A stretch of 64,000 nt of DNA from Nitrospirota bacterium. Lineage in GTDB: Bacteria; Nitrospirota; UBA9217. Positions 3,180 through 23,806 of this stretch are shown one piece after another. Positions within the stretch are counted from its first letter, which is position 1. Every line of letters starts with the position of its first letter. The notes under the pieces are model-generated. The model was not told where the DNA came from and ran no database searches. It worked only from the letters and a program-made list of their open reading frames with translations. The stretch spans positions 288,001 through 352,000 of the forward strand of contig CAWFSF010000002.1 of assembly GCA_963818475.1 (NCBI GenBank). Reading direction: 5' to 3'. Both the position numbers and the translations under genes were made by a program.

Positions 3180-3925
3180 ATGCTGATCATTCCCGCAATC
3201 GATCTTCAAAGAAGGCAAATGCGTCCGGCTCGAACAGGGGCTCATGGACAAGGCCACGGTCTACTCCGATGATCCCGGCACCACGGCAAAGCACTGGGAA
3301 GCGCAGGGCGCCGAGCTGCTGCATGTGGTCGACCTGAACGGCGCGTTCGCCGGCGTGCCCAAGAACCTCGACGCCATCAAGGCCATCCGGGCCGCCATCA
3401 GGATCCCGATCGAAGTGGGCGGCGGCATCCGCGACATCGCAACGATCGAGACCCTCGTCTCGATCGGCATCGACCGGATCATCCTCGGCACCGCGGCCAT
3501 CGAGAACCCGCGTTCGTCGGCGAGGCCTGCAGGAAGTTCCCGGGCAGGATCATCGTGGGCATCGACGCCAAGGAAGGCCTCGTGGCGATCAAGGGCTGGG
3601 CAGAGGTCACGAAGGTGCAGGCCGTCGACCTCGCCAGGCAGATGCAGGACCACGGCGTTATCGCGATCATCTACACGGACATCAAGCGGGACGGCATGCT
3701 GTCGGGCCCGAACATCGAAGCGACCAAGGCGCTCGCGAAAGCGCTCACCATCCCGGTCATCGCCTCGGGCGGCGTGCATACCATGAAGGACATCGAGAAC
3801 CTGCTGACCGTCAGGCACTCCGGCGTCTCCGGGGTGATCACCGGCAAGGCGATCTACACGGCTCGCTCGATCTGAAGGAAGCGATCACGTTCGTCAAGAT
3901 GAACGACAACCGCTGCGCACGGTAG
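3180..3925 (+). CDS. hisA: ProFAR isomerase (apparent frameshifts)
   Basis: [52 protein letters not shown]. Confidence 0.95.
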
Positions 3926-3929
3926 GATC

Positions 3930-4070
3930 AATTTCCAAATGACAAGCATCAAATCTCAGAATAAACTCCAAATGCCAAAAACCAATCATGAAACTTACTT
4001 CATTTTTAATTTCGGTCATTGGATCTTTGCATATTATTTGCGATTTGTTATTTGTAATTTGTGATTTGCT
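3930..4070. repeat. AT-rich intergenic element of degenerate 7-mer units in inverted arms
   Basis: tttccaaatgacaagcatcaaatctcaga... / ...atttgcgatttgttatttgtaatttgtgatttg; similar element at 33056-33188. Confidence 0.65.
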
Positions 4071-4085
4071 TTATTTAGGAGTCCC

Positions 4086-4944
4086 ATGCTTAACCAAACG
4101 AATCATACCCTGTCTCGACGTAAAAGCCGGCCGCGTGGTAAAAGGCGTCAGCTTCGTGAACCTGCGCGACGCCGGGGACCCGGTCGAGATCGCAAAGGCC
4201 TATGACGAACAGGGCGCCGACGAGCTCACGTTCCTGGACATCACCGCCTCGCACGAGGAGCGCGGCATCATCCTCGACATCGTGCGCCGCACTGCGGAGC
4301 AGGTCTTCATGCCGCTCACGGTCGGCGGCGGCATCAAGGTGCTCGACGACATCAGGAACCTCCTGCTTGCCGGGTGCGACAAGGTCTCGATCAACACCAC
4401 GGCGGTCCACGACCCGGAGTTCATCAAGGCCGCCTCGACCCGCTTCGGCAGCCAGTGCATCGTCGTCGCCATCGACGCCAAGCAGGTGATAGCGCACGAC
4501 CCGGACTTCAAATCGCCCTTGAAATGGGCCGACGACCCGAAGTATAAGTCTCTGCTTCTTTCGCAATCCGCAATCCGCAATCCGCAATCCGAAATTACAT
4601 GGGAGGTCTACACCCACGGCGGCAGAAAGCCCATGGGCATCGATGCCGTGGCCTGGGCGCGGATGATGGCGGAGTACGGCGCGGGCGAGATCCTGCTCAC
4701 GAGCATGGACCAGGACGGACAGAAGAACGGCTACGACCTGGAGCTGACGCGCGCCGTTGCCGAGGCGGTCTCCATACCGGTCATCGCATCAGGCGGCGTG
4801 GGGAACCTGGAACATATATATCAGGGATTGACGACGGGCAAGGCTGATGCTGCGCTGGCTGCTTCGATCTTTCACTTCAAGGAATACACCATCAGGCAGG
4901 CAAAAGAATATTTAAAGGAACGCGGCGTGCCGGTGCGGTTGTAG
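4086..4944 (+). CDS. hisF: Imidazole glycerol phosphate synthase cyclase subunit with about 30-aa loop insertion (1-bp indel just after ATG)
   Basis: [55 protein letters not shown]. Confidence 0.97.
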
Positions 4945-5487: not shown

Positions 5488-8400
5488 TTACCATCCGGCG
5501 AACCACTTCACCGCTTCCGCAGCGGAGAGCTGATCGAACTTCATCCTGAGCTTGACGAAGAATCCACGGCTCGTGAACTCGGCACGGGAGAAGTCCCGGT
5601 CATTGAATCCCTCGAAATTATAGCCGATGCTGATCCAGAGGTTCTTTGCAGCGGTATAACCCACTGAGGCCTGGCTTCCATAGCTTTTCTGATCGAGGCC
5701 CCAGGAATGCAGCATGCTGCCGCGGAGCCCAACGTCCCAGGACGTGGTGATATCGTATCGCCCTTCGATCCCGATCAGGTCCGTGTATCCGCGGTAGTCG
5801 TCCTGGTCGATCGTCTCCTGCACATACTTGGACCCGTACTGGAATGAGAGCTGGGTGCGGCTGTCCGCCCGATGGTTCAAGACGAGATTGTTCACCAGCC
5901 GCTGGTTCTCGAAGGATACCGCAGCGCTCTGCTGGTCCGTGCGAATGTAGTCGAAGCGGTCCAGAAGGATGATCCGGGTCTCGAATGGCCGGTAAGCGAA
6001 ACCGATCCGGAAGTCTCCGTTGAAATTCTCCGTTCCCGTTGCCGCGACGCTTCGATAGGTTTGCAGACCCGCGGCAAGCCCCAGGCCGCGCCGCACCTCG
6101 CCTACCGCGCCGGTCGTGAAGCTCACCCGCTCCTCGCTTTCAGAAACGCGGCGCTCTGCGCGGCCGGTCCAGGACCACTTCTCCTGGCGGTATCCTGCGC
6201 CGAGCGAAATGGCGGTGAAGTCCTCGGTGCTGCCCGACGCAGGCGGAACATTCGTATTCACCGAGTACGTTCCGCTGTTGCGGATCGTCGCGGTGCGGTC
6301 CACGCCGCCGTCGAGCGACCAGGCCTTCGTGAGCTGCCAGGTCTGCTTCAGCCCCAGGGTGGAGAAAAGCCGCAGGCCGTTCCCGGTCTCCAGCTGCTCC
6401 ATGGTGGAGCTCATCTGGCCGCCGGTCCAGGGCGACGCCCGCAAACCGATCCGGGTGGTCGCCGTGTCAGCCTGCTTGCCTTGGGTAAGCTCCTGATCGG
6501 CAAAGAACGTCGCGGTCGGGTTCAGCCGGTACTCCATGCCCATGGTCGTCCGCGTCGGAAAATCGATGTTGTCGCTGCTGCCGATGGACTGGTCGTGCTG
6601 GACCCTGCCGAAGAAGCGCTCCGTGAACTGATAACGCATGCTGGTATAGATCTGGTCGGACTGGTGCGTTTCACCTCCAGCCAGCGCATCCTCGGCCTGA
6701 CGCAGGCCGGCTGTCACGTCGTATTTCGTTCCCGTGTACCGTCCCCAGAGCTCGGCAAGGTTGCGCGTTGCGTTCGTGGAGAGGTTCTCCTGACGGAAGG
6801 CCTCGCCGCCCACGGACCAGGGCTGGTCAAGCCGGTAGAGCAGGCCTGCGCCCGTCTTCCGGGTGCCGGTTTCGCTGCCGTTCTGCTGGCCCAGGCCGAA
6901 ACCAGTCTCCTGCTCCCGCACGTAGGCCTTGCCGTCCATCCGGTCGCTCTGGTGCTGGACCTCTGCCAGGTATGCGGAACCCTCGGTCGTGACGCCGGCC
7001 TGCTCCGTCTTCGTGGTCGCCGCCTCTGCCCGGACCTTCGTTGCAGGACCGAGCTTCAGTGTGGCATCGACGCCTTCGAGGTTCCCTTCGCCGCCGACCC
7101 TGCCCTCATGCACGTGCGAGACCCCCACTTCCAGCGTCTGATCCAGAAGCTTCAGGGCGCCGCGGCCGCCGTAGGTGTACGACGTATCTGACGAATCATT
7201 GGACTCGTAGGCTGCCACGATGAAGATGGGGTTGAAGCTGCCATCCCTGCTGAATACGGGCGACTTGAAAAAGACCGTCCCCGCCTCGTAATCAATGGTG
7301 TAATCAAGAAAGCGCGTCAGCTGCAGCCGCGAGACAATGACCTCGCTCTTGAACCGGTCCCGGGTCTCGATGGTTATGCTCTCGGAATTGGCCGCGATGT
7401 TCCTGCGCGAGAGCCGGTAGAGGCCCGAGGTGCCGTCTCCCTGGATCTCATCCCTGACATAAGCCTGGTCCGTGTCCGCCAGGAACAGACTGTACTCGAA
7501 GTTCTCGCCCTTCATCTCGGATTTAAAACCCGTGAAGGTGCGGCTGTACCGAGACAGGTCGGTCACGGTCAGACCGGTGTCATAGTCGCCGAACAGGGCG
7601 TAGAACTGGTCGCGTTCCAGCTTGACATAGATGTTCTTCGCGCTCGCCGCATCGTATTGCTGCTCGCCGGCGTCACCGTAGAGGAGGTAATACTTGTTCG
7701 GATCGATGGTCTGGTAGAGGTCCCGTTTCTTGCTGCCGCTCTTTTTGCTGTCATAGGCAGCCGTGATCAGCCACTCTCCCTTGATCATGCCTTTGGCATA
7801 GAACGCCAGCCTGCCCTCTTCAGAGAAGCCGTCGCCGCCCGGCAGCGTCTCCATGTTGCCCGTTACCGTGTCGTAGCCCACCGTGCCCTCGGCAAGGCCC
7901 ACCAGGACCCAGTCGCGGGTCTCGGGTCTGAGCCAGACGCGGATCTCCTGCACCCCCTGTGCGAGCGGGATCCGGACAACCGCCTCCCCGGTGCGCGTGG
8001 TGGCCGCAAGTTCGATGAGCGCCACGCCGTCCTCACTCACCTCATACCTGAACCGTTCGCGCGGTCTGAGCGGTGAGCGGCGCCTGCTGCAGCTCCGTTG
8101 CGCGCTGCTGCGGCAGATAGGGCGGGTCAATGCTGAATTCGCCGAGCGCTCCCTGGCGCGCCGGATGGCCGTCCCGGTCAAGGAGCCGGACAGCGATGAT
8201 CGCCGGGTTCCTGCCGTCGGCAACAAGCCGCGATCGCCCGGGCTCCAGAACAGCCTGCAAGGGAGGGCCTGAATAGTGCATCGAACGCTCCATGCGGCTG
8301 ACCTCGGCGCCTGACGGGTCAAGGACCACCAGCTCGAACCGGTTATCACCGTCAACGAGGTGAATGCCGCGCCAGATGCTGACCCCGACGGTATGGTCGT

Positions 8401-11400
8401 TCTTCTTCACCGTTCCGTCGAAATAGAGCGCATCCACCGGAACGCCGTTCTGGAGGAGCCGCACCGTCATGCTCGGGTCATGCTTGATCGCGATCTTCGT
8501 GCTCGCGATGGCGGGATGGTCGCTGTCAGGCGGCCAGAGCCAGGCAGTACCGGGCTCTGCTGTGTCGAGCCAGGCAGCAGTGTAGGCCGGCATGCTCTTG
8601 TTGTCCGAAACAGCGGCTGTTCCCTTTTCCGGAGCCCAGACCTCACCGGGCCGGAGCCCGATCGTTGCCACGGCCTTCATGCCGCTGGCCGGGCCGCTCT
8701 TGAGGGCGGGGACTACGAGGACCTGCAGAGGCGGCCGCACCTTGAGTTCCACGCGGCGGTTCCGGGTCCGGCCCTGCTCCGTTGCGTTGCTTGCCACCGG
8801 CTCGTCGGGCCCTTTGCCCTCATAGGTGACTTGGTCAGGTGCAAGTCCCAGCGCGTCGGCGAGGTACGACCCGACCGCTGCCGCGCGCTCGAACGACAGG
8901 GCGTGGTTGTCGGGATACCGCGCTTGCAGTCTGCGGCTGATCGGCCGCGAGTCCGTATGGCCGGTGACCGTAATGTGCTGCACGCGCACCTTTCCGAGCC
9001 GGACAAGGAGACGGTCCAGTTCCTTTTTATCATTCCCGGTCAGGACCGCACTGCCGCTCGAGAACTTCGGATGGAGCACGATGTCCGGCACGGGCTGGAG
9101 CTCCTCGCGGGTGCCAATAACGAGCGCGGTGTTCACCGCCGGCGTCCGGTTGTTCCTGGCCTCGGGCGAATCCGACGTAAGCACGGCTCCGGTAGGCAGC
9201 TGCCGGCCTTCGGGACCTTCGAGCGGCACCGCCGCGTCGAACTTGACCATCCCTTCCCAGTTCGCAGGGACCTCAGCGAAACGGAAGGTCAGCGCTCCCG
9301 CGGTTTCCTGAGGCTCGCCGATGGGGATAACGACCGGGGAGGCTCCGGTCGCCGCTCCGTCAACGATTCTGCCGGAAAAGATCACACTGCCCTTCCGGTA
9401 AGATGCCCCCTCAGGGAGCATGATCGAAAGCTTGAGGTTGCGCGCCGGCACCATGCCCACATGCATCGGCATCGTGTACTCAATGAGGTCCTTCCCAGCA
9501 CCCGCGCCCGGTGCGCCGTCTGCGGACCGCTTCGGAGCCGTGGCGATCTCGATGCTTACCTCGCCGGCAGCCTTCGGTTTGAGGCCGAGGTGGAAGTCCG
9601 CACGCCAGAGCGTCCCGCCCTGCAGATCCGCGAACCGGGAGAAGGGGTTCCCGGCAGAGCGGGTGTTCTCTTCACAGGGCAGGATCTCGTATTTCTCGGG
9701 CACGGTCGCAGTGTCAAGCTGAACCACGTGCGTGCCCGGCTTCACCGCAGCGAAGTGGAACATGCCCTGCTCGTCCGTCACCACGTAGGTGCCGTCCTCC
9801 AGGAAGATCCGGACCTGAGCCAGGCCGGCGCCGATGCTCCGGTCAGGATCGCCGCACCCGTCTATGGCCACACGGCCCGCGATGGTCGCCGTGGAGCGGA
9901 ACAGGTCCTCGATGACCAGCACCGTGGCAGTGGCGGCGTTCGATGCAGAGCCGATCACGGTCGTGGCTACAGCCGTGTTAACGGCCTTGCCGGGATTGGC
10001 GCCTGCTCCGACCGACGCCACATAGGCAACCAGTGCCCTGCCTGACGGTCCCAGGTCGCCGACGGAGAAGGTAAGCCCCCGGCCGTCAGGGGTAACCGTG
10101 GGATCGGCCAGCCGCACGCCGTTCAGCCGGGCCGAGCCTTTCTCGTAGCGGAATCCCGCGGGGCAGCCGGTCCGTGACACCGACACCCGGCGCAAACGCC
10201 GTCGTATCGGCGTTCTCCACCGTAAGAGTATAGGGAACGAAATCTCCTACAGCTGCGGTCGCCTTTGCCGCGGTCTTCTGGAGCCAGAGCCCGGTTCCCA
10301 CGGGGTCCACAGGAATGTCGATATGGAGCGCCGGACCGGGGTTCACCACGAATTCCTCGCCTCTTGATCCGGGATCCACCATGGCAAAGGGGCTGCCCGG
10401 CAGCGCCTGGATCGTCGAGGTGGGCACTGCCGAAGGGGCCCGGTACGCAGCCGGCGGGACAACATCGAGGCGGTAGCGTCCGGGCGCGATATAGGGGAAC
10501 CGGAAACCGCCGGCGGCAAAAGTGTAGCTCGCGCCGCCGCTGTCCATGGCTGTGCCGCCGGAAGTGACCGAGGCCGGGAATGCTGACACGCCGTCATCGC
10601 CATACACCGTGGCAGGCAGGCCGGTCGTTGTGTCAACGAGGGTGACCGTGGCCCCGTCCACGGGCAGGCCGGTCGTGCTGTTGAAGACCAAACCATAGGG
10701 ATCGACCAGAGCAAGGTCGACGCGGCTGTCGGTGCTGTCGGCCACGTCCACGTAGGAGCCGTTGATCCGGGAATTGACGGCAACGCTCAGGATCCCGTTC
10801 CCGCTCACGGCGGGCCCGGGACCGGTCTGGATGTAGCCGGTGAATACGCCCGTGTTCGGGCCGGTCTCGCGAAGACGCAGAACCTCTATGTCATTGGTGG
10901 CGCTGACTCCGACCGTCACCAGGACGGTCTCGATGGCCGCAGGATCGAGGTCCTGGTCAAGGTCGGTCAGGCGGATGAAGAGCGGTTCGCCGGTATGGTA
11001 TGTGCTTCCTGGCACCAGCGGGACAGGCGCGCTGAGGTTGATCGGCGCGGTGCTCGGGAACTGTACCGGATCGGGCAGAACGGCAAAAGGACCTGCGCTC
11101 GTGCGGTAGTCCGTCAGTGAAATGACCGTCGGACGGCTGACGGCGACGCCGGGGCATACTGCAGGAACTCAAGGACCGACGGCGTGCGCGTTGCCACGGT
11201 GGTGATCCGCACCAGGTTGGAACTGGAGGCTACGCCGGCGCCGTCCACGGTATAGGCCGCCGTGGCCGTATTATCGATAAGGGTCCCCGGCGGCACTGCC
11301 CAAAGAGATGAGGACGAAAGAATAAGAATGAAAAGGACCAGGATTGCCATCAGTCCCGATGATGCTGCCCGGGAAAAACAAGCAGCCGCAGGAGCGCATT

Positions 11401-11522
11401 CCGCGCCCCTGCGGCTGATGATCGAATTCTTTTCCAAGCAGCAGACGCAGCCCGTCCGTGCTGCCCATGCTCCGGGCAACCGGTCTGACGACTGCATCAC
11501 TGTTGCGGGAAAAGTGGTTCAT
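5488..11522 (-). CDS. Very large (about 2000 aa) outer-membrane protein: N-terminal DUF11 donor strands, Ig/DUF11/SdrD-B-like domains, OmpA-like peptidoglycan-binding domain, C-terminal beta-barrel (broken by apparent indels; start between 11350 and 11522)
   Basis: Consecutive minus ORFs 11114-11500, 10086-11015, 8042-10195 and 5488-8355 join by frameshifts. Signal peptide AILVLFILILSSSSLWA; DUF11 LWLQKT..GDFVPYTLTVEN..VTDRLP..AVNTA; OmpA motif FSSGSA..VTGHTDS..NHALSFERA..G.DEPVASN..GRTRNRRVE; about 700 aa of amphipathic beta-strands at the C-terminus. Confidence 0.8.
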
Positions 11523-11537
11523 ACTGCGAACTGCTCC

Positions 11538-12656
11538 TTACTGGACCACGACCTGGAACTTGATCACTGCCGATGACGAGAGTGGGATCGTAAGCCCGCT
11601 CACCGTCACGGTATTGGCAGTGAAGTTCGCCCCGTCTCCGTCTGCGTTCGTGTTGGTCTTGCATCCGCCGTTCACCACGATGCCCTCCCCTGCGACGCAG
11701 GTGATCGTAACGCCGTCATTGAACTGCGTGTTAAAGGCCAATCTGCCTGCAGCGATCTCAGCAGCAAGGCTGTCGGTGATGGACACATTATCGGCTTGAG
11801 AACCGGTCGCGCCGTTCGTCACCGTAATGGTGTAGGTGATGACCGCTCCGGGGATCATCTTGGGATTTGACGAGCTGAACGGATCGGAATAGACCACTGC
11901 GGTTTTGGTGATCGTCAGGGCTGCTGCGGTCACCCGGTACGCGCTCCGGTCGGAACCCTCTCCGTCATATTGCGTGTCCGTCCCCACGCTGGCGTTGGCT
12001 GCATCGGCAAAGACCACGTCCACGCCGAGCAGGTTGTTCGCGGCACCGGAGGAGTCCGCCGTCAGCGCGCCAAGACCCGCTCCGCCCGCGTTATGCGTTG
12101 TAGCAATAAGAGCGTAGGCGGCTATATCATTGGTGGCCTGGCCTGCGGGAATGTCTGCCACGATGTAGACCGTCGCGGTTGCATCGGAGACCAGTTCGTC
12201 AATGATAGTCGCAGTGTCCGCACCCGCCTGGTATCCCGCTGTTCCGTTGGTCTCAACAAAGACCTGAACGTTCGCGGCGTCGAAGGAATCGGCCGCATCT
12301 CCGTTGAAGGGATCAGTGGCAGCTGCCGCCGCGAGACTATAGTCCTGCGTTGCGTTGCCATTGTTCCTCACCGTAAAGGTCTGCACCTGCGAGGTTGAAC
12401 TGGGTGCCGTGCTCACATAACTGCCGTCCGTGGTCGTCACGGTGAGGTTGACCTTTGTGTCAACCGCAAAGGTCGCCGTGGGGCCCGTGCTGAGCGGAGT
12501 CTGTGCCACGCCGCTGACCTCGTAGTTGACCGTGGCGCTGTTGGTGATCAGTGTTCCTGAAGCCGTGCCCGCGGCCTCTGCCGACAGCGGGGCGACGATG
12601 GCGATTGCCGCGATCAGCAGCAGCGCCATAAATCTGTAGATCCTGTTCGTATTCAT
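11538..12656 (-). CDS. Secreted split-DUF11 protein, candidate major pilin (372 aa)
   Basis: Strong RBS AGGAGG before ATG 12656; signal peptide ending LSAEA; mature N-terminus AGTASGTLITNSATVNY; C-terminal DUF11 LTITKT..PGAVITYTITVTN..SITDSL ending IKFQVVVQ*. Confidence 0.85.
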   Translation of the reverse strand: MNTNRIYRFMALLLIAAIAIVAPLSAEAAGTASGTLITNSATVNYEVSGVAQTPLSTGPTATFAVDTKVNLTVTTTDGSYVSTAPSSTSQVQTFTVRNNGNATQDYSLAAAAATDPFNGDAADSFDAANVQVFVETNGTAGYQAGADTATIIDELVSDATATVYIVADIPAGQATNDIAAYALIATTHNAGGAGLGALTADSSGAANNLLGVDVVFADAANASVGTDTQYDGEGSDRSAYRVTAAALTITKTAVVYSDPFSSSNPKMIPGAVITYTITVTNGATGSQADNVSITDSLAAEIAAGRLAFNTQFNDGVTITCVAGEGIVVNGGCKTNTNADGDGANFTANTVTVSGLTIPLSSSAVIKFQVVVQ

Positions 12657-12821
12657 GTAATTCCTCCTTCGTAGTACTTCACCATTTCGTTCAGGTAGTT
12701 TATTCTGCTGCACGTGTTCTTCGCTTCTTATCAGTTTAATATCTGCAGTTGCACCACACTCCTTTCAACAATCAGTTTTATCAAGTCTTGTGAACTTGCT
12801 TGCATAGATATAAAAACCTTC

Positions 12822-13317
12822 TCATTTCACCATGGCCCGGAACGAAACGCTGCCTTTGCCGCCCGGAGCCAGCGGTTTGCCCAGGGTCCAGCGTATATGC
12901 GTATAATCCCCGGCCGTGGCCCGCTTCGACACTCCCTTGGCATCGGTCTTCGTCAGCTTATCCGGGGCTGCATAGCGCTTTCCCCTGGTCCACGGAGAAT
13001 TCGATCTTCATGCCCTGGCCCTCGGCGCTGTTCTCGACGTAGACAACGTGTTCGGACACGGGATTCGTTATCACGACATTCTCTACAGGCTTTTTGTCGA
13101 TGTTCGCATACTGCGTGGTGAATATGACCACATCGCCCGGTATGACCTTGGCTGCTGCGGCATCCACCCGCGTCACCTCTTTTTCACCTTTGGTGTTCGT
13201 TGCGGTGACCTCGACCTCGGAAATTGATATCAGTTCAAGGCTCCCTTTTTTCTGCGCTGTTGCAATCGTCGGCAGCAGCAGAACCAGCAGCACCATGCTC
13301 ACAACCGTTTTTGTCAT
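12822..13317 (-). CDS. Small secreted stand-alone truncated DUF11-like protein, candidate chaperone/cap (frameshift near 12980)
   Basis: Signal peptide ..LLPTIATA; PGDVVIFTTQYAN..NVVITNPV; after the frameshift ..YAAPDKLTKTDAKGVSKRATAGDYTHIRWTLGKPLAPGGKGSVSFRAMVK* (stop 12822-12824). Confidence 0.8.
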
Positions 13318-13341: not shown

Positions 13342-14380
13342 TCAATTTATTTTCACGTCAAACGTAATGGTCTGGACCGGGGAAGACGCGCTGTTCAGGT
13401 CCCCGAGCCTCACCGTCACCGTCCCGGCGGTCGTTACGTTCACGTCTCCTGCGTCGGCATCCGCGGCATCGGTCAACAGGCTGTTGTTCAGCCTGAGCGT
13501 TCCGGCCACAGAGGTCGTATTTGTCGGAACCGGGTCCGAGATCACCACACCGGTTGCCGTGCCCGACCCGGACACGGTCACGGTGATGGTATACCGGATG
13601 GTTGCACCGGTGACGGGCTGACCGCCTGCGGAGGTCACCACTGCGCTTTTCAAGAAGCGAGACCATTGCGCTGGCAACACGATAAGCTGACGCTGCCGAG
13701 TGCGCGCTGTCCCTGATCCCGTCGGCAACACCTGCTCCATCGGCAAACACGGTGTCCACCGCAGCCTGGGTGTTCGGCCCAACAGTCTCCGGGACCACGC
13801 CACCCAGTACGCCGACGACGCCGCCGGACCGGGCTGTTGCGACGAGGCTCAGCGCGGAGACATCGCCGCTCACCTGGGCTCCCGGCATGTCGGCAACGAT
13901 ATAGACCGTGCGCACGGCGTCAGCTGCCAGCTCGTCAAGATAGGTCCCCGTGTCCTCCGCAGCCTGATACCCTGCGGTCACGCCGCTCTCAGCGAATACC
14001 TGCGGATTCGCTGCATCGAAGTTGTCGGTCCCTCCGAAGGGGTCAGCAGCAGGGACCGCTGCAAGGGCGAAATCCTGCACGCTGTTGCCGGTGTTCGTCA
14101 CCGTGAAGGTCAGCACCTGAGAAGCTGCACCGGGAGTGACGCTCACAGGGACGCCGTTCGTTGTCGCTGCGATGAGATTGATCTTTTGGTCGACCACCAG
14201 GCTGGTCAAGGCAGTGATCGGGGGCTGGGGGCTTCCGCCATAGTCATACGTGGCGATCGCCAGGCTCGATATGGTCACCCCCGCGGGCGTGCCGGCGGCG
14301 CGGGCGGAGCGCTCCATGATCGTCACCAATACAGTCAGGGCGATGAATGCCGCCAGAACATATTGTGCTGTTTTCTTCAT
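13342..14380 (-). CDS. Secreted split-DUF11 protein, paralogue of 11538-12656, candidate minor/adaptor pilin (frameshift near 13655)
   Basis: Signal peptide ..ERSARA; N-terminus AGTPAGVTISSLAIATY; middle domain matches the paralogue (FTVTNTGN..QDF, DNFDAAN.QVF, DEL..D....VYIVAD.P, VD.VFAD); C-terminal VSLLKS..GATIRYTITV..VISDPVP..ITFDVKIN*. Confidence 0.83.
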
Positions 14381-14403
14381 AGCGAGCGCCCTTGTGCTCC
14401 TCA

Positions 14404-17400
14404 TCACTTCACCCTCACCCGGAACTGCAGCGCAAAGGAGGGAGTGTTCGTGCCGCTCGCACCGTTGAACGTTCCGCTCAGGGATATTTTGATATTCGTA
14501 ACACTGCCGTCGAAACCGTTCACGTCGGGAACCGGCAGGTAGTCGTAGGTTGCACCGTTGTTGCTCGAGAACGAGATGCTGTCAAAAATATTCGACAGGC
14601 CTCCAAAGGCGTAACTGAGCCCGCTCGCTATGGCGCCGTCCGAGAATGCAATGGGGCCGGAACCGGCGACACCGAAGTCACCGGCAAAGAACTCGGTTAA
14701 GGATGGAAGGGGATCGGTCACTACCACAGTCCCTGCAGCGCCTCCCCCGGTATTCGTGGCCAGGATCGTGTACTGCATGCTCGATCCGGGGATGGCCTTG
14801 GGACTGGTGGTGCCGTTCACCGGGTCGGAGTAGGTATTCACGGACTTGACCATCACGATATTGGGGTGGCTTACTGAGGTGAACAGCACACTGGAACTAT
14901 TGTTGGCCATATTCGGATCGGTCTGGTCGTTGGCCGTAATGCTTGCGCTATTGGTAATGGTCACTCCGCCCGCGGTCACCATGGCGGTTATGTTCAGCGC
15001 TTTTGTCGCATCCTTGGCCACGCTGCCCGCCGTCCAAACGCCGGTCCCGCTGTTGTAGGCGCCGCCGCCGTTGTCCGACACATAGGTGACACCCGCGGGC
15101 AGCAGATCGGAAACCATTATGCCGGTCGCATTGTTCGGACCGCTGTTCCCGATGGTGAGCGTATAGACGACGGTGGTTCCCTGGTTTGGCGTTGAGTTGC
15201 TCACGGTCTTGGTGATGTAGAGGTCGGTGCTCTGCACGGTGATCACCGCGCTGGCGGTGTTGTTGGAACTGTTGGTGTCCCCCTGATCCGCCGACGTCCT
15301 CACGGCCGTGTTCGTGATGGTGCTCCCTGCCGTGCCGGTATTGACCGTGGCGTTGATGGTCAGCGTTGCCGTTGCTCCGCTGTTCAGGGCGGCGATGCTC
15401 CAGATGCCGGTCACGCTGGTATAGGTGCCTGCGGTCGCAACGGACGACGTCAAGGTCAACTCCGCGGGCAAGAGATCGGTCACCACGACCGTTGTTGCGT
15501 TGTTCGGGCCGTTGTTCCTGAGCCCGACGGTGTACACGACCGCGCCCCCTTCGTTGGGCGTTGCATTGTCCACCGTCTTGGTCACTGCCAGGTCCGTCGC
15601 GCCAACCACAAGGGACGCGCTCGCTGAATCGTCGGCTGGATTGATGTCGCTCTGGGTCACGGCGGTGATCGACGCCATGTTGTTGATCGTCTGACCCATG
15701 GTACCTGCGTTGACAGTGGCCGCCAGCAGCATGGTGGCCGTCGCTCCCGAGTTGAGCGGGCCAACGGTCCAGGCGCCCGAACCGCTGTTGTAACCGCCTT
15801 GCGTCACCGACGATCCTCCGGCAGCGTAGGTGAGTCCCGCGGGAAGCGCGTCGCTCACGGTTACGTTCGTGGCATTGGTCAGGGACGGATTGCTGATCAC
15901 GATTGTGTAGGTGACGGTCGCGCCGATTGCCGGCGATGTATTGTTCACGGACTTCGTGACCGCAAGGTCCGTGATCCCCACGCCGACCACCAGCGAATTG
16001 ATCGACGAGTTGTTCGCGTTCACCGGATCCGCCTGGGCTGCTGACACGATCTCGGCCATATTGTGAACGGTGGTGCCGTTCGCTGTTGCATTCTTCACGG
16101 TCACATTGATGGTGAGGGCCGCGCTCGCACCGCTCGCGATCGGCCCGGCTATGGTCCAGGTGAGCGTCGGCGCGGAATAGGTCACGGACCCGGTGGTGGC
16201 CGATGCCGAATTGTACGTAAGGTTCCCGGTGTCGATCACGTCCCGCACCGCGATGTTCGTTGCAGGGTGCGGACCGTTGTTGGTGAGCACCACGGAATAG
16301 GAATAGGCTTCGTTCTTGTTCGGCGAGGGGTTGCTCGAAGTCTTGGCCACGGATAGGTCTGCACGCTGCACCGTGATCGACGCGTTCGCCGTGTTGTTCG
16401 CCGTGTTGGGGTCGCCGACGCTCGCGCCGTTGATGGAGGCCATATTCGTGATCGTCATGCCGTTCGTGCCCGCGTTGACCGTGGCAGTGATGGTCCTGAC
16501 CGCGGACCCGCCTGCCATGATGGTGCCTGCGGACCAGAGACCGCTCCCGCTCACGTAGGTGCCGGTGCCTGCGGACGAGACATAGGTCAAGCCGGCGGCG
16601 AGCAGGTCCGAGACCGTGACCGAACCTGCGCTGTAGAGCCCGTTGTTTGTGACGGTAATCGTATAGGTTATGGAATTGGCCTCGTTCGGTGCCGCATTAT
16701 CGACTGTCTTGGACAGGGACAGATCAACGCCGCTGATGAAGACCGAAACGCTGGCACTATTGTTCGCGGTCATGGGATCTGCCTGATCGGATGTTGCCAC
16801 CACCGCCGTGTTGGTCGCTGTTGTACCCATGGCACCATCCACATCCGCCGTGATGCTGAGCGTTGTGGTCGCGCCGCTCGCGAGGTTGCCGACGGTCCAC
16901 GTGCCGCTGTTGTAGGACCCTTGGGTGGCGCTGGACGTCGAATACGTCAGTCCCGAGGAAAGGACGTCGGTCACCGTCACGCCTGTAGCGAGGGAGGAGC
17001 CCAGGTTTTGGAGCGTGACCGTGAAGACCACGCTCCCGCCGGTCGGAGGAGAAGTGTTGTTCACGGTCTTGAAAAGGGCGAGATCCGCGCCGCCGATCGT
17101 GAGCGAATTGCTTGCCGTATTATTGCCGCTCACCGGATCATAGATGGCCGAAGCGGTGATGCTGGCGGAATTGGCAAAGGTCGCTCCCTGGGTGCCCGCA
17201 TTCACGGTCACGGTGATGGTCAGCGATGCGTTCGCGTTGTTCGCGAGCGAGGGCACTTCCCACACACCCGTGGTGCGGTTATAGGTCCCGGCCCCGCTGT
17301 CCGAGACCCAGGTCACGCCAGCCGGAAGCATATCGGTCACCTGGATGCCGGTCGAGTTGTTCGGTCCGTTGTTCGTGACCGTAAGCGTGTAGGTCACGGT

Positions 17401-18573
17401 CTCCCCTTCTGCGGGCGTGGTTTTGTCCGCCGTCTTGGCCATGCTCAGGTCTGCGGCCTTCTGCACGGTCAGTGTGTCGGTCCTAAGTTGATTGGTGTGG
17501 TAGGAGGCGTCGATTGAGTCGAGATAGGTGACGGTCACTGTCTCGATGGCTGTCACCTGGAGCGAGCCGTTCCCGGTAACCGGCGCGCCCGTTGCTGTTG
17601 TGAGAGACCCGGTGAAGATGCCCGTATTAACGTCGGTTTCGGTCAGCGTCACGGTCTCGCTGTCGCCGGTCGGGCTAGTTACCGAGACCGTAAGAGTCTG
17701 GACCGCGGCGTGATTGGTGTTCACATCCTGGTCCGTCATGTTTATGTAAAGGGTTTGGCCGGAATTGAGCTGGGTCACGTCGCCGGTTCCGGCAAGGTTC
17801 GAGACGAACGTGACCGTACCGGTGGCGGGATAGGTGCCCAACGGCGTGACCGCATCGGTGGCATTGGCAGGCATGCACTGGGAGAGATTTGTTGAGCACG
17901 TATTGGATATATCAACGAGGTCCGCCGAGAGAGACTGGGCGCTGTTCGAGCTCCCAATGAAGAATCTGATGGGAGAGGTATCGGTCAGGCCTGTTTTGGC
18001 TTTAAAGGTGGCGTAAGGGATGCGGAAATCGAGGAAATAGTCCCGCCCACCATTCGTCGACGAGTCTGCGGTAACGGTCCGGAAATTGACGTTCAACTGC
18101 CACTGCTCGGACCAGACGGTGACTTCAGTCTTGTCGGACGGGTCACCCAGCGTCCCCTGAGAGGTGTTCTGACCGATCTCGATCGTATCGGGATTATCAA
18201 TGCCGTTCAGCATCACCATCCACTCATAGTCGCTGAAGTCATTGTCCGTATCGATCAGGAACCCCCAGCCGAACGGCTGAAGGCCGGTACCCTGATTATT
18301 CAACGCGTCCCCATCCACACGAATACGATAGAACATATAGGTGCCGTCATTAAACAGGTAAGCTGAGGGATAGGTCGACGTATTGGTGACGATGTCCCGG
18401 GGGTCGTTGGCTCCGCCTTGGGAGTCACTGATGATGTCCGTAAGGCCGGACATGGTTTTCGTCAAAACGATCCACTCGGAGTCCAGCGGCCAGGCAAAGA
18501 GATATGCCGGATAAAGGCAGATGGCCAGAAGGGTGATGATGAGTATTTTTTTTAAGTTCCTCATGAAATTCAT
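14404..18573 (-). CDS. Large secreted adhesin-like protein with 7 complete and 1 C-terminally truncated DUF11 repeats (1389 aa)
   Basis: Signal peptide; seven repeats DLxxxK..YTxxxxNxG..VxDxL..GxTxxNxA..D...NN; eighth unit PNIVMVKS..PGSSMQYTI..VVTDPLP ends LQFRVRVK*. Confidence 0.9.
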   Translation of the reverse strand: MNFMRNLKKILIITLLAICLYPAYLFAWPLDSEWIVLTKTMSGLTDIISDSQGGANDPRDIVTNTSTYPSAYLFNDGTYMFYRIRVDGDALNNQGTGLQPFGWGFLIDTDNDFSDYEWMVMLNGIDNPDTIEIGQNTSQGTLGDPSDKTEVTVWSEQWQLNVNFRTVTADSSTNGGRDYFLDFRIPYATFKAKTGLTDTSPIRFFIGSSNSAQSLSADLVDISNTCSTNLSQCMPANATDAVTPLGTYPATGTVTFVSNLAGTGDVTQLNSGQTLYINMTDQDVNTNHAAVQTLTVSVTSPTGDSETVTLTETDVNTGIFTGSLTTATGAPVTGNGSLQVTAIETVTVTYLDSIDASYHTNQLRTDTLTVQKAADLSMAKTADKTTPAEGETVTYTLTVTNNGPNNSTGIQVTDMLPAGVTWVSDSGAGTYNRTTGVWEVPSLANNANASLTITVTVNAGTQGATFANSASITASAIYDPVSGNNTASNSLTIGGADLALFKTVNNTSPPTGGSVVFTVTLQNLGSSLATGVTVTDVLSSGLTYSTSSATQGSYNSGTWTVGNLASGATTTLSITADVDGAMGTTATNTAVVATSDQADPMTANNSASVSVFISGVDLSLSKTVDNAAPNEANSITYTITVTNNGLYSAGSVTVSDLLAAGLTYVSSAGTGTYVSGSGLWSAGTIMAGGSAVRTITATVNAGTNGMTITNMASINGASVGDPNTANNTANASITVQRADLSVAKTSSNPSPNKNEAYSYSVVLTNNGPHPATNIAVRDVIDTGNLTYNSASATTGSVTYSAPTLTWTIAGPIASGASAALTINVTVKNATANGTTVHNMAEIVSAAQADPVNANNSSINSLVVGVGITDLAVTKSVNNTSPAIGATVTYTIVISNPSLTNATNVTVSDALPAGLTYAAGGSSVTQGGYNSGSGAWTVGPLNSGATATMLLAATVNAGTMGQTINNMASITAVTQSDINPADDSASASLVVGATDLAVTKTVDNATPNEGGAVVYTVGLRNNGPNNATTVVVTDLLPAELTLTSSVATAGTYTSVTGIWSIAALNSGATATLTINATVNTGTAGSTITNTAVRTSADQGDTNSSNNTASAVITVQSTDLYITKTVSNSTPNQGTTVVYTLTIGNSGPNNATGIMVSDLLPAGVTYVSDNGGGAYNSGTGVWTAGSVAKDATKALNITAMVTAGGVTITNSASITANDQTDPNMANNSSSVLFTSVSHPNIVMVKSVNTYSDPVNGTTSPKAIPGSSMQYTILATNTGGGAAGTVVVTDPLPSLTEFFAGDFGVAGSGPIAFSDGAIASGLSYAFGGLSNIFDSISFSSNNGATYDYLPVPDVNGFDGSVTNIKISLSGTFNGASGTNTPSFALQFRVRVK

Positions 18574-19745: not shown

Positions 19746-21092
19746 TCAGGCGAGGTTGTACTTTTTGAGCTTCTCGTGCAGCGTGGACCGCGACATGCCG
19801 AGGATCTTTGCGGCGGTGCTGCGGTTGCCCCCCTCTGCATGCAATACCTTGAGAATATATTCCCGCTCCATCTCCGCCAGCGGCCGATAGCCTTCGCTGC
19901 CGGCCTGCCTCCCTGCATCGCCCCTGTCGCGCTCTTCACCGGTGATCTCCCGCGGCAGGAGGTCGACCGGGACCAGGCTGCTGCGCGACAGCACTATGGC
20001 ACGCTCGACGATGTTCTTGAGCTCCCGAACGTTCCCCGGCCAGGCATAGGCCTGCATAAGCTCCAGCGCCCGGGGAGAGAAACCGGTGACGTGCTGCTTC
20101 AACGTGGCGTTGAACTGCCGCACGAAATAATCGATCAGCACCGGAATATCCTCGGGGCGTTCGCGCAGCGGCGGCATGGTCACAGGGAAGACCTTGAGCC
20201 GGTAGTAGAGGTCCTCGCGGAAACGCCCTTCCGCCACAGCCCGCTCCAGGTCCCGGTTGGTCGCCGCGATGACGCGCACATTGACCGCAATGTCCCGCGT
20301 GCCGCCCACCCGTTTGAAGCGCTGCGTTTCGAGCACGCGGAGCAGCTTCGGCTGAACTGCCAGCGGCATATCGCCCACCTCATCGAGCAGCACCGTGCCG
20401 CCGTCAGCCACCTCGAAGAGGCCCTGCTTCTGCTCCCGCGCATCCGTGAAGGCCCCCCGCTCATGGCCGAACATCTCGCTCTCCAGCAGCGTCTCCGAGA
20501 GCACGGCGCAGTTGATATCGAGGAACGGCCGGTCGCTCCGTGCACTCCTTCGATGGATCTCCCGTGCCGCCAGTTCCTTGCCCGTGCCGCTTTCGCCGAG
20601 CAGCAGGGTTGTCGTCTCGGCATTCTCGGCCATCAGATCGATCATATGGTGCAGTGTCTGGATCGCCATGGACGTGCCGACCAGGGGGTGGTCCAGCAGC
20701 TGCCGGTAGTAGCGGTTCTCGATCCGCAGTTTCCGCGTCTCGAGGATCCGGTTGATCAGCGCCGACAGCTCGAGGAGCTGGGCCGGTTTGGTGAGATACT
20801 GCTCGGCGCCGAGCTTGATCGCCTCGACCGCGTTCCCGATGGAACCCCAGCCGGTCATGACCACCACCGATGCCCGGCATCCCTGATCTTTCAGACGCCG
20901 CAGCACATCGAGCCCGGCCATGTCCGGAAGCTTCATGTCAAGCAGGACCACATCCGGCGCAAAGCTCTCGGCAAGCGTAAGCGCATCGCTCCCGGTCTCC
21001 GCGTGCGCTGCGTCCCAGTTCAGCGATTTGAAGTAATGGAGCAGCGGCGTTATTACGGGGCGTTCGTCGTCTACCAGCAGGATCCTCGGCAT
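19746..21092 (-). CDS. Sigma-54-dependent response regulator (REC-AAA+-Fis HTH, NtrC/AtoC family)
   Basis: LLVDDE/LLDMKLP receiver; GESGTGKE, ESEMFGHERGAFTDA, LLDEVG, FREDLYYRL, WPGNVREL; C-terminal GNRSTAAKILGMSRSTL. Confidence 0.95.
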   Translation of the reverse strand: MPRILLVDDERPVITPLLHYFKSLNWDAAHAETGSDALTLAESFAPDVVLLDMKLPDMAGLDVLRRLKDQGCRASVVVMTGWGSIGNAVEAIKLGAEQYLTKPAQLLELSALINRILETRKLRIENRYYRQLLDHPLVGTSMAIQTLHHMIDLMAENAETTTLLLGESGTGKELAAREIHRRSARSDRPFLDINCAVLSETLLESEMFGHERGAFTDAREQKQGLFEVADGGTVLLDEVGDMPLAVQPKLLRVLETQRFKRVGGTRDIAVNVRVIAATNRDLERAVAEGRFREDLYYRLKVFPVTMPPLRERPEDIPVLIDYFVRQFNATLKQHVTGFSPRALELMQAYAWPGNVRELKNIVERAIVLSRSSLVPVDLLPREITGEERDRGDAGRQAGSEGYRPLAEMEREYILKVLHAEGGNRSTAAKILGMSRSTLHEKLKKYNLA

Positions 21093-21593: not shown

Positions 21594-21609
21594 GGGCACA
21601 TATATTGCT
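21594..21609 (+). promoter_or_regulatory. Sigma-54 -24/-12 promoter candidate for type III glutamine synthetase
   Basis: GGGCAC-ATATA-TTGCT; GG-N10-GC spacing exact. Confidence 0.65.
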
Positions 21610-21718: not shown

Positions 21719-23806
21719 ATGGAGATTTTCGGTAAGAATGTATTCAATCAAGAGGTAATGAGAGAAAAACTGCCAAAGGCTGTTTACAAAAATCTGAAAA
21801 AAACCATAGATGAAGGTTTGCCGCTGGACCCGTCCATTGCCGATGTGGTTGCTACCGCCATGAAAGATTGGGCTGTTGAAAGAGGCGCAACACATTTCAC
21901 CCATTGGTTCCAGCCGATGACCGGTATCACCGCGGAAAAGCATGACTCGTTCATCACACCGACCGACAATGGTATCTTAATGGAGTTCTCAGGCAAAGAG
22001 CTGATCAAGGGCGAGCCGGATGCATCCTCCTTCCCGAGCGGCGGTTTGAGATCAACATTCGAAGCCAGGGGCTATACTGCCTGGGACTGCACTTCTCCCG
22101 CATTCCTGAGGGAAGAAGCGGATGTCATTACACTCTGCATCCCTACCGCCTTCTGTTCCTATACCGGCGAGGCGCTGGACAAGAAGACTCCACTGCTTCG
22201 CTCCATGGAGGCAATTTCGACCCAGGCGATGCGGATGCTCAGACTCTTCGGGAACACGAGTGCAACAAGGGTAACGTCAACCGTCGGCCCTGAGCAGGAA
22301 TATTTCCTGATCGATAAGTCCTATTTCCTCGACAGGCTCGACCTGCTTTTGGCCGGCAGGACGCTGTTCGGCGCCATGCCCCCCAAGGGGCAGGAGATGG
22401 AAGATCACTATTTCGGCAGCATCAAGGAAAGAGTTATTTCCTACATGAAGGAAGTCAATACCGAGCTCTGGAAGCTTGGCGTTACCGCCAAAACCCAGCA
22501 CAACGAGGTTGCCCCCGGACAGTTTGAACTCGCCCCGATCTTCGAAACGACCAACATTGCAACCGACCACAATCAGATGGTTATGGATGTGCTCAAGCGC
22601 ATCGCGATCAGGCATGATATGATCTGTCTGCTGCATGAAAAACCGTTTGCCGGCGTGAACGGCTCCGGCAAGCACAACAACTGGTCCATGAGCTCCAATG
22701 ACGGACAGAATCTGCTCGAGCCGGGTCACACCCCGCACGATAATATGCAGTTCCTGACCTTCCTGATGGCCACCATCAAGGCTGTTGATGAGCATGCCGG
22801 GCTGCTGCGGGTGTCCTGCGCGAATGCGGGCAACGACCACCGTCTGGGCGCGAATGAGGCGCCTCCGGCCATCATCTCCATGTTCCTTGGCGACCAGCTT
22901 GCCGACATCGTCGATCAGATCGAAAAAGGCGGGGCAAAATCCTCCACCAAGAGCGGGGAAATGAAGATCGGCGTGACGACGCTCCCCGCACTGCCGAAGG
23001 ACACGACCGACCGAAACAGGACCTCTCCCTTCGCCTTTACCGGCAACAAGTTCGAGTTCCGGATGGTCGGCTCCTCCTTCTCCATCGCGGGCCCGAATGT
23101 CGTTATCAACACCATCATTGCTGATGCACTCAAGCAATTTGCCGACAAACTGGAAAAATCGAAGGATTTCTCCGGCGACCTGCAGAAGCTGCTTCAGGAG
23201 ACCGCCAAGAAACACAAGCGCATCATCTTCAACGGCAACAACTATTCCGATGCATGGGTCAAGGAAGCCGAGAAGCGCGGCCTGAAGAATATCCCGAACA
23301 CCCCCGAAGCGCTCAAGGAGCTGGTGACGAAGGAAGCGGTCGAGCTGTTCGCTACCCACAAGGTCTTCACGGAAAAGGAAATTCATTCCCGCTACGAGAT
23401 CATGGTCGAGCAGTATATCAAGACCCTCAATATAGAAGCCCTGACCATGATCGACATGGCCAAGCACAGCATCATGCCTGCCGCCACTTCCTTTGCAACG
23501 GAAGTCGCCCAGTCTCTTTCCGCGGTTGCCGCCGTATCCGATAAGATCGATGTGTCAGCCCAGAGAGAGCTGCTGGAAAATATCTCCAACAAACTGTCCT
23601 CGATGAACAAGAACGTCAAGGCGCTTGAGAAGACCCTTGATACCACGTTGAAGATCTCTGACGTCGCTGAACAGGCCGCTGCTTTCAGGAAAAACGTGTT
23701 CGCCCAAATGCTCGCATTGCGAGCGGACGGCGATGCACTGGAAAAGATCATTTCCGCGGATCAGTGGCCTCTGCCGACCTATGCGGAAATGCTGTTCAAC
23801 CTCTAA
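21719..23806 (+). CDS. glnN: Glutamine synthetase type III
   Basis: 695 aa; [91 protein letters not shown]. Confidence 0.97.

Follow-up and report, generated by a model that had tools for sequence, protein, structure and literature searches.

Introduction

In chaperone-usher pili (Fim/Pap), the N-terminal donor strand of each subunit completes the preceding subunit, assembly starting from the tip and being terminated by a donor-only subunit. In SpyTag/SpyCatcher, engineered from Gram-positive CnaB-type adhesin domains, a peptide and a truncated domain rebuild the fold and are locked together by a spontaneous isopeptide bond. Here we describe a gene cluster of a Nitrospirota bacterium (assembly GCA_963818475.1), located in a stretch of 64,000 nucleotides of contig CAWFSF010000002.1 (positions 288,001 to 352,000 of the forward strand; hereafter the window, to which coordinates refer), which encodes a pilin of 372 residues, P0001. 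The Lys/Asp/Asn triad of a DUF11/CLIPPER domain is split across the two ends of P0001; this arrangement is real and conserved, and we put at about 0.68 the probability that the protein assembles in trans, covalently, into a fibre.

According to the accessible part of a preprint (bioRxiv 10.1101/2024.11.04.621531), C. perfringens BsaA, a member of the TasA family, follows a "donor-strand exchange and lock" scheme in which the N-terminal strand of one subunit enters the next and the recipient contributes an acidic residue, E56, that catalyses an Asn-Lys bond (N35/K74), with no sortase. BsaA differs from P0001 in its unrelated fold and family, its Gram-positive host, its anchoring in the membrane and its use of Glu rather than Asp, and it comes with neither a barrel protein nor a tip with a terminal acceptor. 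Pfam and NCBIfam gave no match to TasA-type families on any protein of the cluster, and neither TasA/BsaA family membership nor an adjacent SipW-type signal peptidase was found. In the thread of Sulfolobus acidocaldarius (Saci_0406), as the available text of its description has it (PMC9715654), Ig-like subunits are joined head to tail by donor-strand complementation and an inter-subunit isopeptide bond, and an adjacent gene encodes a cap protein that has a donor only. This thread differs from P0001 in being archaeal, in a bond that starts from Asp24, through its N-terminal amino group, and reaches Asn57 of subunit n+2 (PMC9715654, same part), and in having neither the Lys/Asp/Asn triad nor a DUF11 domain. 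BsaA, the Sulfolobus threads and chaperone-usher pili are the closest analogues of the present system and are not homologous to it.

DUF11 domains, renamed CLIPPER, are presented in the accessible part of a 2025 survey (PMC12617251) as CnaA-like domains with an Asp-catalysed Lys-Asn isopeptide bond seen by crystallography; in 9IFR, the triad is K715/D748/N806 and the bond links the first and penultimate strands. P0001 resembles the DUF11/CLIPPER adhesins (PF01345, TIGR01451; 9IFR) in domain family and in the triad of Lys (first strand), Asp and Asn (penultimate strand). These adhesins, as far as the same part of the survey describes them (PMC12617251), have an uninterrupted domain with an intrachain bond, whereas in P0001 the last two strands stand at the N-terminus, so that completion of the domain requires either a second chain or fold-back. 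That part of the survey covers intramolecular bonds only, and its supplementary tables may list members of the present family as predicted intramolecular cases. Supplementary files aside, the literature yielded no description of a split DUF11 domain, of this pilin family or of the giant barrel protein of the cluster. New here would be a CnaA-like isopeptide domain naturally split across subunits, its deployment across many Gram-negative phyla, and a giant-barrel anchor carrying the final donor.

A DUF11/CLIPPER domain split across the two ends of the pilin

The open reading frame (ORF) of P0001 runs on the minus strand from an ATG at 12656-12654 to a stop codon at 11540-11538. Its features are as follows.

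11538-12656, minus strand: major pilin gene P0001, 372 residues, stop included (ORF and translation)
12663-12668, minus strand: AGGAGG ribosome-binding site, 6 nt before the ATG (from sequence)
12657-12821, minus strand: 165-nt spacer from the small DUF11-like gene to the pilin gene
12573-12656, minus strand: predicted signal peptide, residues 1-28 (from sequence and model)
12453-12572, minus strand: donor segment, residues 29-68, penultimate (Asn39) and last strands of the DUF11/CLIPPER domain
12540-12542, minus strand: codon of Asn39, proposed isopeptide partner
11931-12452, minus strand: middle Ig-like domain, residues 69-242, Asp-rich
11541-11930, minus strand: acceptor, residues 243-372, a DUF11/CLIPPER domain without its last two strands, with Cys320/Cys332
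11904-11906, minus strand: codon of Lys251
11772-11774, minus strand: codon of Asp295, proposed catalytic residue

A preliminary description of this gene had reported a strong AGGAGG ribosome-binding site and a 165-bp upstream spacer, and both are present; in its true frame, the upstream small gene ends with a TGA at 12824-12822, leaving exactly 165 nt (12821-12657). It had also assigned the donor Asn to the N-terminus, and Asn39 is indeed found within LITNSATV (motif ITNSA) at the mature N-terminus; what had to be corrected is the extent of the donor, which comprises two strands (approximately residues 29-68) rather than one. The assignment of Lys (LTITKT) and Asp (SITDSL) to a truncated C-terminal domain was confirmed by the partial TIGR01451 and DUF7927 matches and the profile alignment given below, Lys251 and Asp295 both lying in this domain, which further displays YSDPF, NPKMIPG and TVTNG. 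The middle domain is Asp-rich as described, with 18 Asp in the 180 residues from 63 to 242 (10%), and the reported Cys pair consists of C320 and C332, the only two Cys of P0001. The likening to a SpyTag/SpyCatcher pair is apt as an analogy; P0001 differs in that its split isopeptide domain is natural, in its CnaA-like DUF11/CLIPPER rather than CnaB fold, and in polymerisation being the proposed use.

P0001 is a secreted protein whose signal peptide is predicted to be cleaved after AEA, at residue 28. An AlphaFold2 (AF2) monomer model built on a 42-sequence alignment (mean predicted local distance difference test [pLDDT] 89.6; predicted TM-score [pTM] 0.74) is all-beta past the signal helix (residues 3-21), with pLDDT below 50 at 23-27; the middle domain is all-beta in this model, with pLDDT mostly above 90.

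The NCBIfam DUF11 repeat family TIGR01451 matches residues 262-300 of P0001 (30 bits, cutoff 24), and Pfam DUF7927 gives a partial match that scores 21.5 bits against a cutoff of 31 and spans positions 8-81 of the 132 in its profile. PF01345 itself found no match on P0001 in the Pfam scan; the minor pilin paralogue of the cluster matches it at 29.9 bits. The reference for profile comparison with hhalign was a 125-column alignment of the seven complete DUF11 repeats of the tip protein, each of which reads K...VTD...ITNxA followed by the last strand. The pilin acceptor profile aligned to columns 2-64 (E 8e-9) and the N-terminal profile to columns 88-100, which correspond to the Asn strand (P 0.004). 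Thus, P0001 begins with the last two strands of the domain and ends with the first seven or so. The Lys-Asp-Asn order of one contiguous DUF11/CLIPPER domain is not found in the protein, its sole conserved Asn strand lying at residue 39, and the split makes P0001 a derived form of DUF11/CLIPPER rather than an ordinary member. Compared by fold with the Protein Data Bank (PDB), the pilin model matched generic tandem Ig-like proteins only (integrin legs, AgI/II, CfaB fusions; TM-score at most 0.33), leaving the pilin with no specific structural relative there, and a sequence-profile search of the PDB with the pilin alignment A1 found nothing at E at or below 1.

Conservation and spread of the family

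A sequence search returned 264 homologues of P0001, and cluster representatives at 50% identity numbered 1943 at E at or below 1e-3, 1280 at 1e-10 and 338 at 1e-30. Relatives were found in Nitrospirota, in Gamma-, Alpha- and Deltaproteobacteria-type lineages, in Campylobacterales, Verrucomicrobiota, Spirochaetales, Zixibacteria and others. Residues N39, K251, D258, P259, K266, N281 and D295 are invariant in the 42-sequence alignment A1. Among the 260 proteins, out of 265, in which all three regions of the triad were aligned, N39 is retained in 243, K251 in 257, D295 in 257 and the full triad in 240; the exceptions include a minor-pilin subfamily with Ser or Gly for Asn. The K/D/N positions, of which variation among orthologues had been named beforehand as evidence against the split triad, are therefore conserved.

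Public loci encoding relatives amounted to 559 stretches, the best 80 of which were analysed. Their gene order is kept: tip protein, minor pilin, small DUF11-like protein, major pilin and giant protein. Cultured carriers include Novosphingobium arvoryzae KCTC 32422 (locus L057) and Sphingomonas gilva ZDH117 (L051). A second pilin-like locus is present in the same genome as the window (G000:C1:14637-17339, loci L083-L086), in several frame pieces with 37-66% identity to parts of P0001.

Orphan acceptor of the tip adhesin and orphan donor of the giant anchor

The proteins encoded at the two ends of the cluster carry one half each of the split domain.

14404-18573, minus strand: tip adhesin, 1389 residues, seven complete DUF11 repeats and a C-terminal acceptor
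14407-14886, minus strand: C-terminal acceptor domain of the tip adhesin, without the Asn strand
5488-11350, minus strand: giant anchor gene, encoding a donor, Ig-like/DUF11 domains, an OmpA domain and a predicted C-terminal barrel of approximately 850 residues
11132-11299, minus strand: donor segment of the anchor (AVPPGTLIDNTATAAY...)

No N-terminal donor was found in the tip adhesin. Across the loci, the acceptor is the last domain in 39/39 tip-like proteins, starting 94-158 residues before the end, and its K14 and D58 are invariant in the 27 tip domains compared. The donor hidden Markov model (HMM) matched 0/39 of these proteins; a loose donor pattern occurs in 2/39, close to the chance rate (estimated at 5%).

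Intact homologues of the anchor have 1950-2234 residues, with approximately 1080 residues past the OmpA peptidoglycan-binding domain. In 19/19 long OmpA proteins, the motif I/V-x-N-x-A...Y/F follows directly after the signal peptide, and none of these 19 matched the acceptor; N10, A12, S27 and N28 of the anchor donor are invariant (n=20 anchors). An ORF of at least 1000 residues lies within 400 nt after the pilin in 55 of 61 loci (out of the 80, 17 whose downstream sequence fell short of 4 kb and 2 that lacked a full pilin ORF were set aside); 52 of these 55 downstream giants display the donor motif and 18 a recognisable OmpA domain. Only an exchange of strands between chains makes sense of an acceptor left unpaired in the tip and a donor left unpaired in the anchor.

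In many loci of Alphaproteobacteria and Campylobacterales (L020, L037, L042, L057 and others, Sphingomonadales among them), the giant is shorter, at approximately 1520-1730 residues; these shorter giants retain the donor motif and gave no OmpA match when the OmpA domain of the window was used as the query.

The C-terminal 854 residues of the anchor are modelled as approximately 40 long antiparallel strands (pLDDT 74, pTM 0.63). The best fold matches, all of them large outer-membrane barrels, were SlpA, MtrB, TonB-dependent receptors, LptD, FimD/PapC and SprA, at low TM-scores of 0.15-0.25 that place the resemblance to ushers at the level of fold class only. The barrel part (5488-8355) had no Pfam or NCBIfam match, and its profile (A4) found nothing at E at or below 1 among PDB sequences. 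A large outer-membrane barrel, with FimD and PapC among its fold matches, links the present system to chaperone-usher pili, which it also resembles in its N-terminal donor and in the proposed polarity, the tip leading and a donor-only protein closing the chain; it differs from them in its two-strand donor, its probably covalent junction and a far larger barrel protein with a donor strand of its own. Neither the ORFs of the cluster nor their neighbours matched a PapD-like chaperone, usher (PF00577-type) or sortase family in Pfam and NCBIfam. P0001 itself ends in ...AVIKFQVVVQ, with no LPXTG-type sorting signal as in sortase pili, and its signal peptide contains no Cys and hence no lipobox Cys as in type V (Bacteroidota) pili.

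A natural tandem fusion and a three-chain model

One relative, P0125 (696 residues), reads donor-middle-acceptor-donor-middle-acceptor and is thus a natural tandem of two complete pilin units. The complete-repeat HMM spans its internal junction in one piece (residues 276-383, HMM positions 15-100, through the Asn) and stops at position 61 on its terminal acceptor. Judged by these matches, the junction formed by acceptor 1 and donor 2 reads as an ordinary contiguous DUF11 domain; Pfam gave sub-threshold matches only on the junction (DUF7927, E 0.014; GramPos_pilinBB, E 0.018).

A three-chain model was computed from the C-terminal 160 residues of the tip, the entire mature pilin, including both its donor and its acceptor, and residues 1-56 of the mature anchor. 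It reached interaction prediction scores from aligned errors (ipSAE) of 0.84, 0.83 and 0.84, the best of three controls scoring 0.21; this mark was attained by 58/80 solved complexes and 2/110 mismatched pairs, ipSAE being the model's own confidence, the alignments custom, and the three-chain design unlike that of the calibration. Contact agreement between runs was at least 95% and partner pLDDT at least 88. In the model, pilin residues 37-47 and 60-68 contact tip residues 12-18 (Lys strand), 28-33 and 49-61 (Asp strand), and anchor residues 8-19 and 25-37 contact pilin residues 244-253, 266-279, 288-295 and 365-372. The N-terminus of the pilin is thus placed in the tip and that of the anchor in the pilin, even though the pilin's own acceptor was on offer. 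These predictions support binding.

A terminator-like hairpin after the pilin gene

The pilin and anchor genes are separated by a further element.

11373-11417, minus strand: terminator-like hairpin of 16 pairs (12 G-C) with a T-run, approximately 120 nt after the pilin stop

A terminator-like hairpin is found at the same place in two other loci, L001 (11251-11295) and L002 (6115-6161). The hairpin precedes the hydrophobic start of the anchor protein, and its position suggests that the true start of the anchor is the ATG at 11350 rather than that of a longer ORF. Its location is as expected if more pilin than anchor is made, and it is possibly an attenuator setting the pilin-to-anchor ratio. 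No sigma-70-like site was found on the gene's strand between 11300 and 13000, and none of the sequencing runs listed contained more than 0.11 of the sampled words or was of RNA.

Minor pilin and small acceptor-like protein

Two more genes lie between the tip and pilin genes.

13342-14407, minus strand: minor pilin paralogue, with a frameshift near 13650
12822-13317, minus strand: small secreted acceptor-like DUF11 protein, with a frameshift near 12982

The donor of the minor pilin reads GVTISSLAIATY, with Ser in place of the bond-forming Asn, and its acceptor retains Lys and Asp. Ser is likewise found at this position in P0032, P0034 and P0039, and Gly in P0037 and P0043. With Ser for Asn, the N-terminal junction of the minor pilin cannot be covalent. 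Between the genes of the minor and the major pilin, the loci conserve this small DUF11-like protein (approximately 155-180 residues), and 83 ORFs of less than 260 residues were counted over the window and the 80 loci together. It has an acceptor-like end and no donor motif, its first strand has no conserved Lys, and its Asp position holds Asn or Asp. The small protein could serve donor strands as a periplasmic chaperone, or it could form a cap held non-covalently, and both lock-less variants, the minor pilin without Asn and the small protein without Lys, might act as cap or chaperone.

Proposed assembly and alternatives

Completion of the split domain in trans is favoured by four computational lines, namely the distribution of donors and acceptors, the tandem fusion, the three-chain model and the hairpin. 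To this extent, the earlier view of P0001 as a major, self-polymerising shaft pilin stands; we infer its "major shaft" and "covalent" elements, as well as the order in which the parts assemble, the growth of a long homopolymeric shaft and transit through the barrel.

As proposed, P0001 would be the repeating subunit of a surface fibre of Gram-negative (Nitrospirota-like) cells. Upon Sec export and removal of the signal peptide, the front 40 or so residues of the mature protein would present the two closing strands of a CnaA-like DUF11/CLIPPER domain, with Asn39 among their residues. The donor strands of one subunit would enter the incomplete C-terminal domain of the subunit ahead, completing a domain at each junction and setting Asn39 beside the neighbour's Lys251 and catalytic Asp295, whereupon a Lys-Asn isopeptide bond could form without an enzyme. 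The chain would start at the 1389-residue adhesin (acceptor only), be extended by pilins (donor and acceptor), and end on the N-terminus of the giant OmpA/barrel protein (donor only), which would anchor the fibre both in the outer membrane and to peptidoglycan.

Several points weigh against this scheme. Part of the triad is missing in 20/260 relatives, which, together with the Ser of the minor pilin, makes covalency impossible at some junctions. The tandem fusion is a single example, P0125 being the sole long form among the 150 representatives listed, and no longer fused relative of P0001 was found at E at or below 1e-10, which is weak evidence in itself. The ipSAE scores carry the reservations given with them. 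Lastly, the cluster contains single-base frameshifts in this genome, in the minor pilin (near 13650), the small protein (near 12982) and the anchor (near 11115, 10160 and 8060). Each of these adjoins a short homopolymer, and contigs of close relatives (90-99% alike, from four runs, X1-X4) have exactly one base fewer at several of the sites: at 8059/8060 in three runs, at 10160/10164 in two and at 12982 in one, with one relative contig showing one gap within 13536-13737. The breaks are thus most likely assembly errors, and real decay of the cluster is not favoured. The pilin and tip genes are intact, and no indel was seen in the relative contigs over the pilin gene, which they cover partially.

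The alternative that survives best, although we consider it unlikely, is completion in cis, according to which P0001 would be a monomeric, circularly permuted CLIPPER whose own N-terminal strands fold back, with the middle domain as an insert and the bond serving intramolecular stabilisation. The AF2 monomer, confident as a whole by its pTM, is so over the N-terminal segment too (pLDDT 87 and 85 over residues 31-50), suggesting that this segment docks on its own acceptor and that completion in cis is sterically possible, a further point to be held against completion in trans; CnaA-/CnaB-like domains moreover tolerate inserts, and discontinuous isopeptide domains occur in Gram-positive pilins, according to the accessible part of the survey (PMC12617251). 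Yet folding back would leave the terminal acceptor of the tip, with its invariant K14/D58, without any Asn strand, and the N-terminal Asn strand of the anchor (19/19; 52/55) without any acceptor. In addition, the three-chain model chose trans when partners were present and cis was open, and the fusion junction makes a contiguous domain from acceptor 1 and donor 2.

Slightly less probable, in our estimate, is completion in trans without a polymer, the tip, minor pilin, major pilin and anchor forming a fixed chain of one copy each that would serve as a modular adhesin stalk. Such a chain would agree with a cluster that encodes exactly one protein per type, and with a complex model that covered heterotypic junctions only, not pilin donor with pilin acceptor. 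It accounts less well for a pilin in which neither the donor nor the acceptor departs from the standard, fully conserved type, for the existence of a natural pilin-pilin fusion, and for a terminator-like hairpin right after the pilin gene, as fits a subunit needed in excess. Non-covalent donor-strand complementation, with insertion in trans and the triad as a packing aid or ancestral relic, is very improbable, because, for all that the minor pilin is conserved without its Asn and that a BsaA N35A polymer holds in SDS until heated (accessible part of bioRxiv 10.1101/2024.11.04.621531), the triad is kept in 240/260 relatives from many phyla, its residues are likewise kept in tips and anchors, and the same triad forms the bond in the solved CLIPPER domain 9IFR.

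Beyond the assembly of P0001 in trans, we give even odds to a broader proposal, that these loci represent a widespread, undescribed class of Gram-negative pili in which all junctions (tip-pilin, pilin-pilin and pilin-anchor) would be split CLIPPER domains completed in trans and self-locking, the fibre ending on, and probably passing through, a barrel protein of approximately 2000 residues that supplies the last donor, with no chaperone, usher or sortase, and with natural ligation pairs that include lock-less variants. If true, enzyme-free covalent pilus assembly would extend beyond Gram-positives and archaea to many Gram-negative phyla, joining the chaperone-usher, type IV, type V and curli systems as a new route of assembly. 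A large set of hypothetical "DUF11 repeat" proteins would be explained, and the loci would provide naturally evolved, probably mutually specific Lys-Asn peptide/domain ligation pairs.

Genome and neighbouring genes

The 7 contigs of the genome assembly add up to 4.66 Mb; completeness is 91% and contamination 6.2%. Sigma-54-like sites are absent from the spacers before the pilin and tip genes, and their total in the window (50) is below the chance mean (68). An NtrC-type sigma-54 activator (19746-21092, minus strand) lies beside a type III glutamine synthetase (21719-23806, plus strand), the gene of which is preceded by a sigma-54-like site with one mismatch (21594-21608, plus strand). With no such site before the pilin or tip genes, the NtrC-type regulator cannot be tied to the cluster, and the pair looks like nitrogen regulation, unlinked to the pilus genes. 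Two ORFs at 3244-3786 and 3988-4944, both on the plus strand, match His_biosynth, the first of them over profile positions 22-111 of 228 only, and this first ORF may be part of another gene cut by a frameshift.

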